IMG/VR virus record: IMGVR_UViG_2778261154_000013
Coordinates: 1 to 9,418 of that record
Source of the DNA: a virus
Taxonomy: Duplodnaviria; Heunggongvirae; Uroviricota; Caudoviricetes
Direction: 5' to 3' (one strand)
DNA length: 9,418 nucleotides
Made by a program: the position numbers and the translations under genes. The notes beneath the pieces were generated by a model. It ran no database searches and had not been told where the DNA came from. It saw nothing but the letters and a program-made list of their open reading frames with translations. Position 1 is the first letter of the stretch; every line of letters begins with the position of its first letter. Of this stretch, positions 1 through 6,121 are shown piece by piece.

Positions 1-286
1 AACTGTGCCGCGTGCGCTTAGCCGCATTCACCGCATCACAAAATTCACTTTAAAAAGGGCGGACATCAGCCAGCAATTAAACCGATGCCGCCAACTGGTA
101 CTTCACACAGCAATGTCGTTATTTACAACCGGAAGCGCACTCCCACCATTTAAATTTCACAGACAAGACCGACTCTTTATGAATACCGGAAATGCGCCTT
201 CGTGTTGTGCCCGGTTTTATTTCACCACCTCCGGGCTTTGGTGGTATCTTTACTGAAGTTTTCACACAACCAGTAAGGAAATGAAT
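1..286. other. Non-coding leader/intergenic region upstream of the 287..577 gene
   Basis: All three minus-strand frames hit stops within the first 80 nt, and the only longer minus-frame stretch (122-313) has no ATG. The + ORF 5..256 is Cys/Arg-rich with no RBS. Contains a hairpin ACCACC(224-229)/GGTGGT(240-245) with a 10-nt loop. Confidence 0.5.
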
Positions 287-577
287 ATGCCAACGTATCT
301 CGCCAGAGTAGAACTATATAATGCTGAGCCAGAGGATTACGAAGGGCTTCATAAATATATGCTCTCACTAGGATTCAGGAGAACGATCCCCCATGGAGAT
401 GGTTCGTATAATCAACTCCCGGACGGAACTTATGTTTCCGAAAAGGGCGGTGATATTTATCAAATTCGCAGCCAGATATCTGACTATGCAGACCGACTAT
501 CCGGGTATCGCGCGTCTGTTTTTGTTTGTGAATTCAGTCAATGCGCATGGTATTTATACCCCGCCAAGACCCGGTGA
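287..577 (+). CDS. Hypothetical 96-aa soluble protein in the sieB-equivalent slot; candidate moron or superinfection-exclusion gene
   Basis: ORF 281..577; the second ATG at 287 has SD AAGGA (275-279) at 7-nt spacing, whereas ATG 281 directly abuts the SD. No hydrophobic segment, so it is not SieB-like. Rightward orientation opposite the leftward early genes, as for sieB in Rac/lambda. No family recognised by eye. Confidence 0.6.
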   Translation: MPTYLARVELYNAEPEDYEGLHKYMLSLGFRRTIPHGDGSYNQLPDGTYVSEKGGDIYQIRSQISDYADRLSGYRASVFVCEFSQCAWYLYPAKTR

Positions 578-757
578 ATATCCTGCACGGCCTTCTGCTT
601 TGTAGAAGGCTTCTTCGCTATCATAATCGCCAGATTCCAGCGCTTCTTTAGCCAGCCAGATGCGTGCCCCAGTGCCTGCATTTGGCTCCAGTTGCTGGAG
701 GCGTTTTGCATCTTCTAGGAGTAGAGCGATAACGTGTTTTAATTCTGTCTCGTTCAT
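554..757 (-). CDS. Small hypothetical early-left protein (Rac YdaF/YdaG-like, tentative), 67 aa
   Basis: Minus-strand ORF 554..766 (GTG); the internal ATG at 757 has SD AGGTGA 5 nt upstream and gives MNETELKHVIALLLEDAKRLQQLEPN... The start lies 1 nt downstream of the upstream gene's stop (coupled). The 3' end overlaps the convergent 287..577 gene by 24 nt. Confidence 0.6.
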   Translation of the reverse strand: MNETELKHVIALLLEDAKRLQQLEPNAGTGARIWLAKEALESGDYDSEEAFYKAEGRAGYSPGLGGV

Positions 758-758
758 T

Positions 759-914
759 TTACTCACCTGAATGTCTTCCCAACCAACGACGTGCGCCAGC
801 TTCGGTTTTAAACGTTTTGCTTTTGGTATACGTCATGGCGGTGAATGTGCCGTCTTGATTGGGAAACACGCCACATACCAGAGATTCGTTGTTGCCAAGA
901 TCGATAGTATTCAT
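759..914 (-). CDS. Small hypothetical early-left protein, 51 aa (Rac YdaF/YdaG-like, tentative)
   Basis: ORF 759..977 begins with TTG; the internal ATG at 914 is preceded by a G-rich SD (GGGG, 5-nt spacing) and gives MNTIDLGNNESLVCGVFPNQDGTFTAMTYTKSKTFKTEAGARRWLGRHSGE. First gene downstream of the pL-like promoter. Confidence 0.6.
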   Translation of the reverse strand: MNTIDLGNNESLVCGVFPNQDGTFTAMTYTKSKTFKTEAGARRWLGRHSGE

Positions 915-1094
915 GTTGACCCCATTTCCCCTTAACGCCGGGTGGCGGAACGTTTTATCTACTGCGCTTTGTATCAATCAACAACTGCCGTCATGTTCGT
1001 ATGCCTCAGGCTGGCTACTTAGCCCTGTTCAGTGACTGGATAACTCGAGGTATTGTCCTGCCGTTCTCTGGTGGGGCGTTGTTTGGATATGCTT

Positions 1095-1136
1095 ATTAAA
1101 CACAATTTGTTTTCTTATGTCAACACGTAATGTGTT
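1095..1136 (-). promoter_or_regulatory. pL-like leftward early promoter with overlapping operator sites
   Basis: On the minus strand: -35 TTGACA (revcomp of 1118-1123), 17-nt spacer, -10 TTTAAT (revcomp of 1095-1100). Operator-like inverted repeat AACACgtaatGTGTT at 1122-1136 overlaps the -35; a degenerate copy AACACaatttGTTTT at 1099-1113 overlaps the spacer. Confidence 0.5.
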
Positions 1137-1164
1137 TTATGGTGGGTGTCATATGATGATGCTA

Positions 1165-1190
1165 CAAAAAAGCCCGCTGATAGCGGGCTG
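1165..1190 (-). terminator. Rho-independent terminator ending the repressor transcript
   Basis: Perfect 8-bp stem AGCCCGCT(1171-1178)/AGCGGGCT(1182-1189) with a 3-nt loop, followed on the minus strand by a U-run (+ strand A-run 1166-1170). Lies 30-55 nt downstream of the repressor stop (1220). No T-run on the + side, so it is unidirectional. Confidence 0.8.
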
Positions 1191-1219
1191 ATTGGCATAT
1201 TACTGTGATAGCAAGATCA

Positions 1220-1639
1220 TTATTCCGGTGGGGGATTATCTTTAATCCTGCCTCTCAAATATTTTTCTACATACTCATCGATTTCTTTTAGCCGGACTTC
1301 AAATAGCTCAATCATTCGTTGTTGTTCTGAGCCCGGTAGCTGGTTAAACAACTCAAGAAGTTTTCGTTGGGATTCATTTAACCACAATTCAGAAGATTCC
1401 TGTTCTCCAAAGAGGAGCTCAGGAGGAGATATGCCAAGTGCCTTTCCCAATACGACAGCGTCATGTACTCCAACATTTCTGCTGCCCGCCTCATAGTTAC
1501 CTATACGCGATTGCGTCCATCCGCAGATTTCAGCAAGTTTTCCTTGAGATAAACCAAGCTTCTGCCTGCGCTCTTTAAGACGCATTGCAATTTTGTCATT
1601 GAGCCTACTAGCGGCAATTTTTTCGTTTTCTTTTTCCAT
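1220..1639 (-). CDS. Prophage repressor, XRE-family helix-turn-helix, no S24 peptidase domain
   Basis: 139 aa; HTH signature LGLSQGKLAEICGWTQSRIGNYEAG; ATG at 1639 with SD AAGGA. Divergent from the Cro-like gene, the classic cI/cro arrangement. Too short to carry a LexA-like autocleavage domain. Confidence 0.85.
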   Translation of the reverse strand: MEKENEKIAASRLNDKIAMRLKERRQKLGLSQGKLAEICGWTQSRIGNYEAGSRNVGVHDAVVLGKALGISPPELLFGEQESSELWLNESQRKLLELFNQLPGSEQQRMIELFEVRLKEIDEYVEKYLRGRIKDNPPPE

Positions 1640-1735
1640 TGCATCCTTGTATCACGAATCGTGATTTACATAAAACACAAAACAGCTTGACTATATAACA
1701 CAAGGTGTGTTTAAAATTGTCATCGGAGGTTTTCA
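1640..1735. promoter_or_regulatory. Divergent immunity operator/promoter region (pRM-like leftward, pR-like rightward)
   Basis: Perfect palindrome ATCACGAaTCGTGAT at 1651-1665. Second palindrome AACACAaggTGTGTT at 1697-1711, of the same AACAC..GTGTT family as the oL sites. Putative rightward -35 TTGACT at 1687-1692 and -10-like TAAAAT at 1712-1717 (spacer about 19 nt, so the alignment is uncertain). SD GGAGG at 1725-1729. Confidence 0.6.
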
Positions 1736-1960
1736 ATGAACAAAATTTCAACATATCGAAAACAGCTTGGGCTGTCTCAAAGACAACTTGCTGTTCAGTT
1801 AGGGTGGATACAAAGCCGACTGGCAAATTACGAAGCAAATTTTCGTACCCCTGGACTAGAGGAGTGCAGAAAAATTGTTTCTACCCTTAATCGGCTTGGC
1901 GCTCATTGTGGACTTGACGATGTATTCCCCCAGACGGTAAGCATAGCGAAAACAGCATAG
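1736..1960 (+). CDS. Cro-like small HTH regulator (XRE family)
   Basis: 74 aa; HTH LGLSQRQLAVQLGWIQSRLANYEAN; SD GGAGG 6 nt upstream; first gene of the rightward operon, divergent from the repressor. Confidence 0.85.
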   Translation: MNKISTYRKQLGLSQRQLAVQLGWIQSRLANYEANFRTPGLEECRKIVSTLNRLGAHCGLDDVFPQTVSIAKTA

Positions 1961-1973
1961 GAGCGGTTGATTC

Positions 1974-2396
1974 ATGAAAATCAGGCATGAGCACATCGAA
2001 TCAGTGTTGTTAGCCCTGGCAGCCGAAAAAGGGCAGGCGTGGGTCGCTAACGCAATTACTGAAGAATATCTGCGCCAGGGGGGCGGCGAATTGCCCCTTG
2101 TACCAGGCAAGGACTGGAACAATCAGCAGAATATCTATCACCGTTGGTTGAAAGGTGAAACGAAAGCGCAAAGGGAAAAAATTCAGAAGCTGATCCCAGC
2201 AATTCTGGCAATCCTTCCGCGCGAGCTGCGTCACCGACTCTGCATCTTCGATACCCTGGAACGCCGTGCATTACTGGCGGCGCAGGAAGCGTTGAGTACG
2301 GCAATTGATGCGCATGATGATGCAGTCCAGGCCGTTTACCGGAAAGCGCATTTCAGCGGCGGCGGGTCTTCCGACGATTCTGTCATTGTTCATTAA
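1974..2396 (+). CDS. ydaT: CII-like regulator, Rac YdaT-like protein
   Basis: 140 aa, same length and position (immediately after the Cro-like gene) as Rac YdaT; the sequence matches my recollection of YdaT (MKI.HEHIESVL.ALAAEKGQAWVANAITEEYLRQGGGELPLVPG...). SD AGGAG upstream. Confidence 0.7.
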   Translation: MKIRHEHIESVLLALAAEKGQAWVANAITEEYLRQGGGELPLVPGKDWNNQQNIYHRWLKGETKAQREKIQKLIPAILAILPRELRHRLCIFDTLERRALLAAQEALSTAIDAHDDAVQAVYRKAHFSGGGSSDDSVIVH

Positions 2397-2459
2397 GCAA
2401 AAGTTTCCATGCTGTTTGTGCTTATTCTAAGCAACCGGGCAGCATCATACGGGGCAATT

Positions 2460-3608
2460 ATGGCCGCATTACCATACATGCAACTGTACATAGCTGATTA
2501 CCTGGCTGACACCATGCATTTGTCAGCAGAGGAGCACGGCGCGTATTTGTTGCTGATGTTCAATTACTGGCAAACAGGAAAGCCAATACCCAAAAACAGG
2601 TTGGCAAAAATTGCCCGTCTGACTAACGAGCGATGGGTTGATGTTGAACCATCCTTGCGGGAGTTTTTTTGTGATAACGGCGACGAATGGATGCATCTTC
2701 GGATTGAGGAAGATCTGGCATCTGTCAGAGAAAAATTAACCAAAAAATCAGCCGCAGGAAAAGCATCTGTTCAGGCCAGAAGAAGCAGAAAGGAAGCAGA
2801 TGTTCAAACAAAACAAGAGAGAAATTTAACAGGTGTTCAAACAGATGTTGGAGTGATGTTCGAACATGATGCCAACACAAAGGCAACTAATAAAGATACA
2901 GATAAAGATCTAAAAACAGATCTAACCCATCCCAAACCCTTCCCTTCCGGAAGGGAGTTTCGGGATTTTGTGGCTGGAGTGCTTGAGGGGAGATTATCTG
3001 GCGGTACTGCAGCGGAATTTTGTAATTCTGCGGTGGTTGCGTTGCAGGCTGCTGGCCTGGATGTCTGTCGTGAGTATCCGGTGCCAGAGCGTGGTGACGG
3101 TTGCGGAGGGCGGATTGATATCGTCGTGACTGACAGGAACGGTGTCCGGTGTGGGATCGAGCTTGACCGAAATTCTCCGCGACAGAAATCACTGCTCAAA
3201 ATCGGTGCTGTTGAAACCGGGATATGTGTCTTGCGGCGCAGTGATATCGCAAGGCACACCGAGCAGGGAATTCTGGTTATCGGTGGGGCTGTTCGCCAGA
3301 AAAAATTTGACCCGTTGTCAGTTGATCTGCCCGACTGGTTGCCAGAAACACTCTGGCATGAGTGGGTCCAGTTCAGGCAGGCATTGCGAAAACCGATTCG
3401 AACGGAGCAGGGCGCTAACGGGGCGATACGGGAACTGGAAAAATTCCGTCAGCAGGGTTTTACACCTGAGCAGGTGATTCGACACAGCATCGCCAATGAA
3501 TACCAGGGTCTGTTCGCGCCGAAAGGTGTTCGGCCTGAGACGTTGCTCCGACAGGTTAACACCGTCTCGTTGCCGGACAGTGCGATCCCGCCAGGCTTCA
3601 GGGGGTAA
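2460..3608 (+). CDS. Replication initiation-associated protein, DUF1376 (YdaU-like) N-terminal domain, 382 aa
   Basis: ORF 2409..3608; start preferred at ATG 2460 (SD GGGG, about 6-nt spacing), since ATG 2409 has no SD. N-terminus YMQLYIADYLADTMHLSAEEHGAYLLLMFNYW is the DUF1376 hallmark. Sits in the lambda O position, directly before the DnaC-like gene. Confidence 0.8.
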   Translation: MAALPYMQLYIADYLADTMHLSAEEHGAYLLLMFNYWQTGKPIPKNRLAKIARLTNERWVDVEPSLREFFCDNGDEWMHLRIEEDLASVREKLTKKSAAGKASVQARRSRKEADVQTKQERNLTGVQTDVGVMFEHDANTKATNKDTDKDLKTDLTHPKPFPSGREFRDFVAGVLEGRLSGGTAAEFCNSAVVALQAAGLDVCREYPVPERGDGCGGRIDIVVTDRNGVRCGIELDRNSPRQKSLLKIGAVETGICVLRRSDIARHTEQGILVIGGAVRQKKFDPLSVDLPDWLPETLWHEWVQFRQALRKPIRTEQGANGAIRELEKFRQQGFTPEQVIRHSIANEYQGLFAPKGVRPETLLRQVNTVSLPDSAIPPGFRG

Positions 3609-3614
3609 CAGACC

Positions 3615-4361
3615 ATGAAAAATATTGCGACAGGAGGCGTTCTGGAGCGTATCCGCAGACTGACCCCACCACATGTAACCGCCCCATTCAGAACGGTTGC
3701 GGAGTGGCGCGAGTGGCAACTTGCTGAAGGCCAGAAACGTTGCGAGGAGATCAACCGCCTGAATCGTCAGTTGCGGGTGGAAAAAATCCTGAACCGCTCC
3801 GGCATCCAGCCGTTGCACCGGAAGTGTTCGTTTGCGAATTACCGGGCGCAGAACGACGGTCAGCGACATGCACTGAGTCAGGCGAAATCCATAGCTGACG
3901 AACTGATGACAGGCTGTACGAATTTTGTGTTCAGCGGTAAGCCCGGCACCGGAAAAAATCATCTTGCAGCCGCGATTGGCAACCGGCTGATGGCGAAGGG
4001 GCGTAGCGTGATTATCGTCACCGTGTCCGATGTCATGAGCGTGTTGCATGAGAGCTACGACAACGGCAAATCCGGTGAAAAATTTTTACAGGAGCTTTGT
4101 GGTGTTGACCTGCTGGTCCTGGATGAAATTGGCATGCAGCGGGATACGAAAAACGAGCAGGTGGTACTGAACCAGATTGTTGATCGCCGGACGGCATCGT
4201 TACGCGGTGTGGGGATGCTGACAAATATTAACCATGCAGCGATGAATACACTTCTCGGCGAGCGGGTGATGGATCGCATGGTCATGAACGGCGGGCGCTG
4301 GGTGAATTTTAACTGGGAGAGCTGGCGTCCGAATGTTAGCCATTCGAGGGTTGTTAAGTAG
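3615..4361 (+). CDS. ydaV: DnaC-like replicative helicase loader (IstB-like AAA+ ATPase)
   Basis: 248 aa; Walker A FSGKPGTGKNHLAAAIG and Walker B LLVLDEIG closely resemble DnaC; start 7 nt after the upstream stop, with SD GGGGG. Confidence 0.9.
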   Translation: MKNIATGGVLERIRRLTPPHVTAPFRTVAEWREWQLAEGQKRCEEINRLNRQLRVEKILNRSGIQPLHRKCSFANYRAQNDGQRHALSQAKSIADELMTGCTNFVFSGKPGTGKNHLAAAIGNRLMAKGRSVIIVTVSDVMSVLHESYDNGKSGEKFLQELCGVDLLVLDEIGMQRDTKNEQVVLNQIVDRRTASLRGVGMLTNINHAAMNTLLGERVMDRMVMNGGRWVNFNWESWRPNVSHSRVVK

Positions 4362-4375
4362 TTTCAGGAGGATTT

Positions 4376-4798
4376 ATGGCGAAACCTTTTACTCCCGAAC
4401 AGCGGGAAGAACTGAAGACGCGAATTGTGGAACTCGTGCATCAGGACGGTCGGGTCACGATTCGGCAGTTGTCAGATGAAACAGGTATCAGTCGTGCGTC
4501 TGTCGGTCGCTTATGCATGGAACTGGTCGCAAGTGGTGATGTATATAATTCTGGCTACGGCTTATTCCCGTCTGAACAGGCTCGCAAGGACTGGCAAAGC
4601 GCCCGCAAAAAACTCTTGAGAGTAAAGGTGAGGAAACCGGTTGTTGTTGATCCGGACCTTATCTGGTCATTACCTGACGGAGAAATACGCCGCTACGACA
4701 GGCGCCTGAATATAATCTGTCGCGAGTGCCGGAAAAGCAAGGTTATGCAGCGTGTGCTGGCGTTCTATCAGGGTAACTTTCAGGAGGTGATGGCGTGA
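4376..4798 (+). CDS. Hypothetical protein with N-terminal winged-helix-like DNA-binding region
   Basis: 140 aa; SD AGGAGG 7 nt upstream; N-terminal segment VTIRQLSDETGISRASVGRLCMELVASGDV resembles a wHTH; stop overlaps the start of the next gene. Confidence 0.7.
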   Translation: MAKPFTPEQREELKTRIVELVHQDGRVTIRQLSDETGISRASVGRLCMELVASGDVYNSGYGLFPSEQARKDWQSARKKLLRVKVRKPVVVDPDLIWSLPDGEIRRYDRRLNIICRECRKSKVMQRVLAFYQGNFQEVMA

Positions 4799-5100
4799 GG
4801 GTGAGAGTTTATATTGCCGGTCCAATGACCGGGTATAAAAATTTCAACCGTGAGGCGTTCCACAAGGCGGAAGAGAAGCTGAAACAGAAAGGGTGCACGG
4901 TGTTGAATCCGGCAGTGCTTCCTGGTGGGCTGACACAGGCGCAGTACATGGATATTTGTACGGCGATGCTCCGCTGTGTGGATACGATTTACATGTTGAA
5001 AGGCTGGCATCGGTCGGCAGGTGCTAAGGCAGAACTGGCGCTGGCGGCGAAACTGGGGCATGAGGTTGTATTTCAGGAGGCAACCAGTGAGCAAGATTGA
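4795..5100 (+). CDS. DUF4406 family protein (nucleoside 2-deoxyribosyltransferase-like fold)
   Basis: 101 aa; GTG start at 4795 with SD GGAGG (4783-4787); N-terminal motif VYIAGPMTG...NF....F typical of DUF4406/NDT-like proteins; overlaps the upstream stop by 4 nt (GTGA). Confidence 0.75.
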   Translation: MRVRVYIAGPMTGYKNFNREAFHKAEEKLKQKGCTVLNPAVLPGGLTQAQYMDICTAMLRCVDTIYMLKGWHRSAGAKAELALAAKLGHEVVFQEATSEQD

Positions 5101-5695
5101 CTATCAGGCACTGCGTGAGGCGGCACAGAACGCGAAAGATTTAGGTGGGATTAAGAATTACAAGCGAGGTGAGCAAGCTGTTGCCGAATTTGAGTCCTTG
5201 ATAACGGCACACCTTGTGCTGGCACTGCTGGATGAACGGGAAAGAAACCAGCAATACATAAAACGCCGCGATCAGGAGAACGAGGAAATTGCGCTAACGG
5301 TAGGGAAGCTGCGTGTTGAGCTTGAAGCAGAAAAATCAAAACTCAACGAGCAGCGTGAGTATTACGAGGGAGTAATCGCGGATGGAAGTAAGCGCATAGC
5401 AGAACTGGAAGCACGGGAAATAAAACCAGCCAAAGGCGAAGTTCTTGTCGTTGTATCTGGTTTTACTGGTTGCGGGAAAAGCGCCATTGCCGGGGAAATA
5501 GAAATTGCGATGAAAGCTATTGGTGTGCCGGTTCTATGGACTAATGGCGATGCGGAAAAGCGCATGACAGGAGCTGACTGGCTGACAGCGATTGAGATGT
5601 ACAAACCAACTGTGCGCATCGTGGAAGTTAATGTGCCACGCGCCGCTGGCATTCGCATCAAAGGAGAGGAGCATGCAAATAAAACCAGAAGATGA
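5087..5695 (+). CDS. Ead/Ea22-like coiled-coil phage protein
   Basis: GTG start at 5087 with SD AGGAGG (5075-5080); N-terminus SKIDYQALREAAQNAKD... typical of ead/Ea22-like prophage proteins; central coiled-coil (LRVELEAEKSKLNEQREYYEG); overlaps the upstream gene by 14 nt. Confidence 0.7.
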   Translation: MSKIDYQALREAAQNAKDLGGIKNYKRGEQAVAEFESLITAHLVLALLDERERNQQYIKRRDQENEEIALTVGKLRVELEAEKSKLNEQREYYEGVIADGSKRIAELEAREIKPAKGEVLVVVSGFTGCGKSAIAGEIEIAMKAIGVPVLWTNGDAEKRMTGADWLTAIEMYKPTVRIVEVNVPRAAGIRIKGEEHANKTRR

Positions 5696-6029
5696 GTTAA
5701 GTAATATTGTTTTATTTCCGGTAAAGGAGGATGACCCACGTGATCAGGTTAATTTTCTTTATGAGCCATCGGAAAGACCATACTGCCATCACGCTTCTGT
5801 CCGGGTTGACGAAAAAGAGCGTCAGGTCCGCTGTAAAATCTGCGGTGCAGTTGTGGAGCCATTTGACTGGATGCTCTCTGTGGCGAAAAGAGAAACCAGA
5901 CTGGCAGATGATGTAAGGTTATTGCGCCAGGAGGAACAGGAAAGGCGGAAAAATATAGAAAAGCTGATACAGATTGAGCGTAACGCGAAAGCGCGGATAC
6001 GCAGGGCGACAAAATCCAGAACTGAATAA
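5673..6029 (+). CDS. Hypothetical small protein with putative zinc-ribbon (C-H-H ... C-x2-C) and basic coiled-coil tail
   Basis: ATG 5673 with SD AAGGAGAGGAG immediately upstream; the listed start at 5592 has no SD and lies deep inside the ead-like gene. Motif YCHHASVRVDEKERQVRCKICG. Overlaps the ead-like 3' end by 23 nt. Confidence 0.6.
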   Translation: MQIKPEDELSNIVLFPVKEDDPRDQVNFLYEPSERPYCHHASVRVDEKERQVRCKICGAVVEPFDWMLSVAKRETRLADDVRLLRQEEQERRKNIEKLIQIERNAKARIRRATKSRTE

Positions 6030-6121
6030 TTAAATTTAGCACTGTTAAAAATTTAATCCTTAACCGGAGGGATTTCTGCACCCTCAAATCATCAGGAGAC
6101 CGCCCGAAAGGGCGGTAATGA

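Follow-up and report, generated by a model that had tools for sequence, protein, structure and literature searches.

The stretch analysed here, positions 1 to 9,418 of the IMG/VR virus record IMGVR_UViG_2778261154_000013 (hereafter, the window), is the 9.4-kb early region of a Rac-family lambdoid prophage. The element under study is the palindrome AACAC-N5-GTGTT, which is found on either side of the gene for a CI-like repressor. These palindromes can be considered, with a probability of about 0.88, to be the operators of the lysogeny repressor of the prophage, acting in a lambda-style switch on two early promoters. The kind of switch is well known, and it is the operator specificity that is newly defined.

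The window shares 99.9% identity with a prophage that is integrated at the ttcA-intR-xisR site in E. coli VL40. Of 5,426 complete E. coli genomes, 153 contain the immunity region (window positions 1000-2000) at a coverage of at least 80%, among them O157:H7, O145 and avian pathogenic E. coli (APEC) strains. The genes follow the lambda-type immunity order. From left to right, these are a leftward operon of small genes, the left operator and promoter (oL/pL), a terminator, the repressor gene in the reverse direction, the right operator (oR) with the right promoter (pR), and the Cro-like, YdaT and replication genes (Table 1). The repressor (−) and cro-like (+) genes are divergent, with an intergenic region of 96 bp, and both proteins match the helix-turn-helix (HTH) family HTH_3 of Pfam. 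An Rfam scan of positions 1-2400 returned no RNA family.

Table 1. Features of the immunity region and its neighbourhood, in window coordinates.
Feature	Position	Strand	Remarks
PHROG 30817 gene	554-766		member of the leftward small-gene pair
DUF1391 gene	759-977		member of the leftward small-gene pair
pL-like leftward promoter	1095-1123	−	−35 TTGACA (1123->1118), 17-bp spacer, −10-like TTTAAT (1100->1095)
OL1-like weak operator	1099-1113		AACACAATTTGTTTT; 1 mismatch; in the pL spacer, abuts the −10; 23 bp from OL2
OL2-like strong operator	1122-1136		AACACGTAATGTGTT; exact match; overlaps the pL −35
Intrinsic terminator of the repressor transcript	1171-1189	−	8-bp stem with 6 GC pairs, then a T-run; between the repressor gene and oL
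CI-like repressor gene	1220-1639	−	139 aa; Pfam HTH_3, E = 4.6e-13
OR3-like operator	1651-1665		ATCACGAATCGTGAT; ATCAC-N5-GTGAT, perfect palindrome; 12-26 bp upstream of the repressor ATG
OR2-like half-site operator	1674-1688		AACACAAAACAGCTT; left half conserved; right half overlaps the pR −35
pR-like rightward promoter	1687-1717	+	−35 TTGACT (1687-1692)
OR1-like strong operator	1697-1711		AACACAAGGTGTGTT; exact match; between the pR −35 and −10
Cro-like HTH gene	1736-1960	+	helix GWIQSRLANYE; 3' end frameshifted; Pfam HTH_3, E = 5e-10
YdaT-family (CII-equivalent) gene	1974-2396	+	third switch member; Pfam YdaT_toxin, E = 8e-12; PHROG 163 CII-like activator, E = 2.8e-37
DUF1376/YdaU replication gene, then DnaC-like ATPase gene	downstream of ydaT		

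Palindromes and putative promoters around the repressor gene

The exact motif AACAC-N5-GTGTT occurs only twice on both strands of the window, at 1122-1136 and 1697-1711. Shuffled sequences give an expectation of 0.01, and two or more matches were present in 0 of 200 shuffles. The first-pass annotation had placed these two copies over the −35 element of a leftward pL-like promoter and between the −35 and −10 elements of a rightward pR-like promoter, respectively, and had pointed to a degenerate copy at 1099-1113. These placements stand, for the promoters at the sequence level, and the degenerate copy differs from the motif by a single mismatch. The operator set presented in that annotation was correct in the two strong sites and the degenerate copy but incomplete, as the OR3-like palindrome and the OR2-like half-site were overlooked. 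The OR3-like site has two mismatches to the AACAC pattern. When up to two mismatches were allowed, 8 matches were found in the window versus 4.3 expected, which is near chance. Because this count is not above chance, the weaker sites lean on their position and conservation and not on window statistics.

The centres of the sites are located at 1658, 1681 and 1704 in oR and at 1106 and 1129 in oL, i.e., in steps of 23 bp throughout. The predicted layout is like that of lambda, in which a strong site has a weaker one beside it and a third lies close to the repressor gene. That pL/oL duplicates pR/oR in inverted orientation is shown by an inverted repeat of 46 nt with 74% complementarity (1096-1141 versus 1669-1714). 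When the 23-bp lattice was extended in search of a third oL site, the sequences at 1076-1090 and 1145-1159 did not resemble the motif. A GTGTT half-site is kept at the third-oL position in the Citrobacter, Serratia and Klebsiella relatives.

Both putative promoters combine a good −35 hexamer with an A/T-rich −10-like element, and these lie on the flanks of the operator sites. The −35/−10 pair of the putative pL overlaps OL2 by 2 nt and encloses OL1. The arrangement of TTGACA or TTGACT with TTTAAT recurs in relatives and in phage mEp213. For the putative pR, which encloses OR1, the −10 element may be either TTTAAA (1710-1715, 17-bp spacer) or TAAAAT (1712-1717, 19-bp spacer). The latter reading is favoured because relatives carry an A/G polymorphism at 1714 (TAAAAT versus TAGAAT).

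Conservation of the sites and the protein that probably reads them

The comparison was based on a census of 219 loci, consisting of repressor relatives with their flanks, and eight further loci were examined separately. The oR sequences of the E. coli/Salmonella type comprise 36 unique ones. In these, variation was seen in none of the 25 half-site columns and in 38 of the 71 remaining intergenic columns (Fisher p = 4e-7); the relatives share descent, however, and both the column statistics and the p-value overstate the independence of these sequences. In OR1, none of the ten half-site columns varied, while four of the five spacer columns did. The ten half-site columns of the OR3-like site and the left half of OR2 were likewise invariant in this set, and so were the half-sites of OL2 in 48 unique oL sequences. 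Serratia, Klebsiella and Citrobacter relatives have OL2 in the equivalent position. The spacers exist in 11 versions in OR1 and in 15 versions in OL2. For OL1, the left half, AACAC, does not vary among the relatives from E. coli and Salmonella. The right half is GTTTT in nearly every E. coli relative, with GATTT instead in locus L069, and is degenerate in the Salmonella group. The distance of OR2 to OR3 and to OR1 is exactly 23 bp in 80/80 loci of the AACAC class. In Serratia and Klebsiella relatives, it is the other half of OR2 that is kept, with GTGTT fused to TTGACA.

Invariant half-sites with free spacers extend over the E. coli, Salmonella, Citrobacter, Serratia, Klebsiella and Enterobacter relatives, so the conservation in homologous immunity regions that the first-pass annotation had anticipated was found. 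Fixed half-sites around a free centre are what is expected from the operator of a dimeric HTH protein and not from a promoter spacer, and the operator role is strongly supported by the comparison. An alternative is that the conserved bases are promoter sequence, preserved by duplication and by contacts with RNA polymerase, and do not bind a regulator. It would fit the 46-nt inverted duplication of pL/oL and pR/oR and the location of every site over or directly beside a −35 or −10 element. However, the strong oR site fills the weakly constrained stretch between −35 and −10 with ten fixed half-site bases and five variable central ones, and the sites are dyad-symmetric. Moreover, the OR3-like site is equally conserved outside the duplicated promoter, and the outer half-site bases follow the helix class of the repressor while the promoter layout is constant. 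This explanation is very improbable.

Repressor classes were defined by the start of the recognition helix in the pattern G-W-x-x-S-R-x-x-N-Y-E. The OR1, OR2 and OL half-sites are AACAC...GTGTT with the helix [T/A]QSRIGNYE, CTCAC...GTGA[G/A] with SGSSRIANYE, TTCAC...GTGAA with S[A/G/T][A/P/S]SR[L/V]ANYE and G[A/T]CAC...GTG[T/A]C with ATASRVGNYE. In 83 of the 84 loci with the [T/A]QSRIGNYE helix, oR and oL each contain a single exact copy of the motif, and no further copy is present in the 430 kb of these loci; the OR1 copy lies at +57/58 from the CI start in 83/84 loci. AACAC-N5-GTGTT is absent from all 135 loci with other helices, which amount to about 460 kb, and the sister classes have the CTCAC, TTCAC or GACAC variants at equivalent positions. 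The recognition helix of the repressor and the two outermost bases of the half-site covary. At the OR3 position, A[T/C]CAC-N5-GTG.. is kept in all CI helix classes except some ATASRVGNYE loci and the atypical locus L004. The motif is absent from locus L006, where the repressor has the same C-terminal domain and an unrelated N-terminal DNA-binding domain (DBD). As predicted from the xQSR helix, Serratia, Klebsiella and E. hormaechei loci (CI identity of 60-61%) carry AACAC-N5-GTGTT at +58 from the repressor start and over the pL −35. The prediction held too in Citrobacter phage Chris1 (ON041214), which encodes a 65%-identical short repressor and carries the exact motif at the OR1 and OL positions.

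The 434 repressor contacts the outermost A of the 434 operator with Gln28. When the helices are aligned, the Gln of T-Q-S-R falls at the position of this residue, and in classes without the Gln, the outermost base of the operator is C, T or G. For this reason, the start of the helix appears to read the outer dinucleotide, and S-R/N-Y-E appears to read CAC.

The Cro-like protein has to be considered as the other possible reader of AACAC. The HTH-coding stretches of the repressor and cro genes (1531-1560 versus 1764-1793, inverted repeat I2) are 83% complementary over 30 nt, and the proteins are 45% identical over 42 aa, with the helices TQSRIGNYE and IQSRLANYE. Hence, the two are paralogues with near-identical recognition helices. 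In lambda, 434 and E. coli O157:H7 prophage CP-933P, both proteins bind the same operator region (PMC8630535), and on this ground AACAC-N5-GTGTT might equally be the Cro operator, with Cro and the repressor differing only quantitatively between the sites. Against this, an identical Cro helix, GWIQSRLANYE, accompanies operators of the AACAC type in 80 loci and of the CTCAC-N5-GTGA[G/A] type in 56, and both Cro alleles are found with both repressor classes. The sequence PP818812 (locus L001) is 99% identical to the window up to base 1091 and 96% identical again from exactly the cro ATG at 1736. Between these points, it has a different repressor with the SGSSR helix and CTCAC operators. The resumption of homology exactly at the cro start codon means that oR travels with cI and not with cro. 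Because the operator region is inherited with the repressor, while the same Cro is paired with two operator types, the AACAC specificity belongs to the repressor. The consensus that the first-pass annotation assigned to repressor and Cro jointly thus tracks the repressor but does not track Cro. That Cro uses the motif equally is therefore an assumption, and a rather doubtful one.

The sole full dyad that is nearly unchanged between the AACAC and CTCAC classes is the OR3-like ATCAC-N5-GTGA[T/A]. Since no other dyad is shared by both classes, Cro may read the common CAC...GTG core or prefer the OR3-like site. Lambda Cro prefers OR3. A more specific rule, pairing ATCAC at OR3 with ..RLANYE and ACCAC with ..RLSNYE in Cro, was dropped, as the E. 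hormaechei Cro KQSRIANYE has ACCAC.

Several side observations concern Cro and the comparison loci. In the window, the C-run of cro at 1927-1931 contains five C, whereas 61 of 64 close relatives have six, which results in a frameshift near the 3' end (1921-1960). The window Cro is consequently a 74-aa protein with an altered tail and an intact HTH; the usual form has 80 aa, and its TGA stop overlaps the ydaT ATG (ATGA coupling). The frameshift could be a sequencing error or a real mutation. PP818812.1 ("Actinobacillus phage vB_Apl-pPE4", locus at 2428-3861) was deposited as a phage of Actinobacillus pleuropneumoniae. It is 96-99% identical to the window outside the immunity cassette, and the cassette is of the SGSSR type, as in E. 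coli-type IMG/VR contigs; in view of these E. coli-like features, the host assignment looks doubtful. The pL leader, which separates oL from the DUF1391 gene (985-1091), has 99% identity in L001 despite the different CI and operators. It contains a stem-loop-like element at 1054-1078 without a match in Rfam and might act as a structured leader RNA for the left operon. Contig IMGVR_UViG_2574180332_000004 (58.5 kb) carries an AACAC-class and a CTCAC-class immunity region (L062 and L095) about 45 kb apart in the same orientation, and these probably are tandem heteroimmune prophages sharing the Cro helix.

It is exceedingly unlikely that the palindromes are sites of another regulator, i.e., YdaT (CII-like), LexA or a different host factor. 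YdaT is a DNA-binding tetramer encoded beside cro (PMC9986795). However, the YdaT site of CP-933P is TTGATT-N6-AATCAA, and its sole near match in the window (one mismatch) lies at 1967-1984, outside oR and oL. In addition, ydaT is 96% identical at the DNA level in L001, yet the L001 operators are of the CTCAC type. YdaT was ruled out as the binder of the palindromes on these two grounds. No LexA box was found in the window, including in or near this region, and the motif tracks the helix class of CI.

A number of observations weigh against the assignment of the palindromes as repressor operators, in addition to the shared descent of the relatives. The sites at 1099-1113, 1651-1665 and 1674-1688 are not significant from the window alone. 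In Raoultella (L004), the same recognition helix is accompanied by sites with one or two mismatches alone and by no oL cluster, and Yersinia, with an SQSR helix, keeps half-sites only. The −10 elements are ambiguous, as TTTAAT has no −11 A and TAAAAT requires a 19-bp spacer. A stricter consensus promoter scan called neither pL nor pR, although it called the repressor terminator, and pL was not called because its −10 element has no A at position 2. A relaxed scan gave pR with the 19-bp spacer alone and no good sigma-70 match for a promoter comparable to pRM, the promoter of repressor maintenance in lambda. With these scan results, the pL and pR assignments stay at the level of what can be read from sequence.

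The repressor protein and the proposed switch

The repressor has the recognition helix GWTQSRIGNYE and consists of an N-terminal HTH_3 domain and a C-terminal helical hairpin. Its significant Pfam matches are HTH families alone (HTH_3 and HTH_31). No Peptidase_S24 match was found in Pfam, and the protein ends at residue 139. The NCBIfam model of the DicA subfamily (NF007257) aligns to residues 15-133 with 57.3 bits, below the cut-off of 101; the repressor is DicA-like in architecture but is not a member of the DicA subfamily. An AlphaFold2 model (predicted local distance difference test score of 85.5) features a five-helix HTH domain (residues 17-77), a linker and the C-terminal hairpin (89-133). 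The modelled DBD superposes on C.AhdI and P22 C2 at a root mean square deviation (rmsd) of about 1 Å and on the 434 repressor at 1.4-2.1 Å. Sequence and fold searches of the Protein Data Bank found the generic HTH domain alone and no solved relative of the C-terminal hairpin. The Salmonella homologue of the repressor is 84% identical to the window protein.

As there is no S24 self-cleavage domain, induction is not expected to proceed by the RecA-cleavage route of lambda, and antirepressor-based induction is probable, as in the Gifsy and Qin prophages. By analogy with these, the repressor is probably inactivated by an antirepressor. The left operon of the 99.9%-identical VL40 prophage contains, outside the window, a gene for a Rha-family regulator, which is a candidate for this function.

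The following scheme of the switch can be proposed. The 139-aa CI-like protein would bind as a dimer of HTH domains of the 434/P22 C2 type. Each operator would be a 15-bp dyad, N2-CAC-N5-GTG-N2, with half-site centres 10 bp apart, a distance that fits a dimer contacting two successive major grooves. The invariant Ser-Arg...Asn-Tyr-Glu would read the invariant CAC core, and the helix start (Thr-Gln) would read the outer AA. At oR, the strong site in the pR spacer would act together with the half-site over the pR −35, and occupancy of OR1 and OR2 would block pR and hence cro, ydaT and the replication genes. The predicted arrangement of oL mirrors this, with the strong site over the pL −35 and the weaker one over the spacer and −10, and occupancy of OL2 and OL1 would block pL. 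The OR3-like site, just upstream of the repressor ribosome-binding site, would limit repressor synthesis through Cro and/or excess repressor. Induction would be brought about by an antirepressor in the Gifsy/Qin fashion. The motif positions and their statistics, the conservation, the covariation with the repressor helix and the protein folds are results of the analysis; in the scheme built on them, we infer the binding itself, cooperativity, the promoter starts, the preference of Cro and the induction route.

Two further loci were noted downstream in the window. The DUF1376/YdaU open reading frame (ORF) at 2409-3608 encodes 399 aa, and the near-identical VL40 and FDAARGOS_944 prophages are annotated with two incomplete YdaU pseudogene pieces in its place, which suggests that foreign sequence was inserted or fused mid-gene. 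A hok/sok-type toxin-antitoxin locus is located at 8020-8344. The Rfam match to the sok antitoxin RNA (8020-8194) scores 118 bits versus a gathering score of 59 and overlaps the ORF at 8132-8344. The last 51 residues encoded by this ORF correspond to the Hok/Gef peptide in the annotations of the VL40 and FDAARGOS_944 prophages.

Relation to known switches and significance

The similarity to lambda includes the divergent repressor and cro genes and the three oR dyads with a centre spacing of 23-24 bp, overlapping the putative pR and the putative promoter region of the repressor. It also extends to the second cluster at pL beyond the repressor gene, to the strong promoter-proximal site with a weaker, presumably cooperative site beside it, and to a third regulator of the CII type that is encoded downstream of cro. 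Unlike those of lambda, the window sites are 15-bp dyads (5-N5-5) of another sequence, and oL contains two of them instead of three. The window repressor, of 139 aa, lacks an S24 cleavage domain, an unrelated protein of the YdaT family takes the place of CII, and no N gene follows pL in the window. A conserved Shine-Dalgarno sequence suggests that cI of the window is probably not leaderless, which is another difference from lambda.

The closest experimentally studied layout is the PaaR2/YdaS/YdaT switch of CP-933P, which has a short HTH repressor, the divergent Cro-like YdaS, YdaT as the CII equivalent and a PL/OL set (PMC8630535, PMC9986795); its OR and OL operators were shown by footprinting (PMC8630535). 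The O_M-like YdaT site at the cro/ydaT junction is present in the window too, as TTGATT-N6-AATCAG. This sequence, TTGATTCATGAAAATCAG, has one mismatch to the YdaT-protected O_M repeat of CP-933P, overlaps the ydaT start codon and is likely a YdaT (CII-like) site for a promoter of the pRE (repressor establishment) type. The operators of CP-933P themselves are four 18-bp palindromes with the half-site consensus GTTTAGTAA and differ in sequence from those of the window. Furthermore, the CP-933P repressor operon carries the paaA2-parE2 toxin-antitoxin genes, whereas the window repressor gene ends at a terminator.

DicA/DicC of Qin and GfoR, GfhR and GtgR of the Gifsy prophages share with the window repressor an N-terminal HTH followed by a short helical C-terminal part, in about 130-140 aa (PMC3441716, PMC10448788, PMC3121763). 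They also have no Ala-Gly/S24 cleavage module and show the divergent repressor/cro arrangement. The DicA operator Oc, TTGTTAGTCATAACTAACAA, is unrelated to the window motif (PMC3441716). Antirepressor control was shown for Gifsy and Qin (PMC3121763, PMC10448788), and it is probable for the window prophage.

The five-helix DBD fold is common to the window repressor, P22 C2 (rmsd of about 1.1 Å) and the 434 repressor (1.4-2.1 Å at 33-38% identity). Closely related recognition helices of repressor and Cro are a feature of the 434 and P22 systems as well, as are conserved outer half-sites around a sequence-free centre. The operators differ in that the 434 operator is a 14-bp ACAA-N6-TTGT, the P22 operator has 18 bp and the window operator 15 bp, and the 434 and P22 repressors are RecA-cleavable two-domain proteins.

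The lambdoid phage mEp213 (PV340538) has a CI DBD that is 58% identical to that of the window repressor. Its oR and oL contain three sites each, with the pattern [A/T][A/T]CAC-N5-GTG[A/G/T]T and a spacing of 22-24 bp. It differs in having a canonical CI with an S24 cleavage domain and a pL that leads to an N gene. The presence of the same operator form with a cleavable CI indicates that this operator type is older than the short-repressor architecture. A full-text literature search found no description of AACAC-N5-GTGTT operators, nor of the operators of mEp213 or Chris1.

The general picture of such switches is unchanged by these results. They provide a precise operator consensus for one immunity type of Rac-family prophages, supported by comparison with relatives, and a small natural specificity table relating the helix start to the outer operator dinucleotide. 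For the relatives examined, which cover several genera of Enterobacterales, superinfection-immunity groups become predictable from sequence. The system is also a clean one for engineering orthogonal repressor/operator pairs. The less ordinary aspect is the inferred modularity of the repressor/operator code with a shared Cro. We tentatively suggest that immunity specificity may be a two-part code, in which the helix start is matched to the outer dinucleotide of NNCAC-N5-GTGNN and the cI-operator module recombines at the cro start. A shared Cro would then serve at least two heteroimmune classes (AACAC and CTCAC), probably via the shared core or the OR3-like ATCAC, enabling cross-talk at the level of Cro; the trans-acting antirepressors of Gifsy are an analogue of such cross-talk. 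If this code is true, the Cro of one prophage could shut off repressor synthesis in a co-resident heteroimmune prophage.

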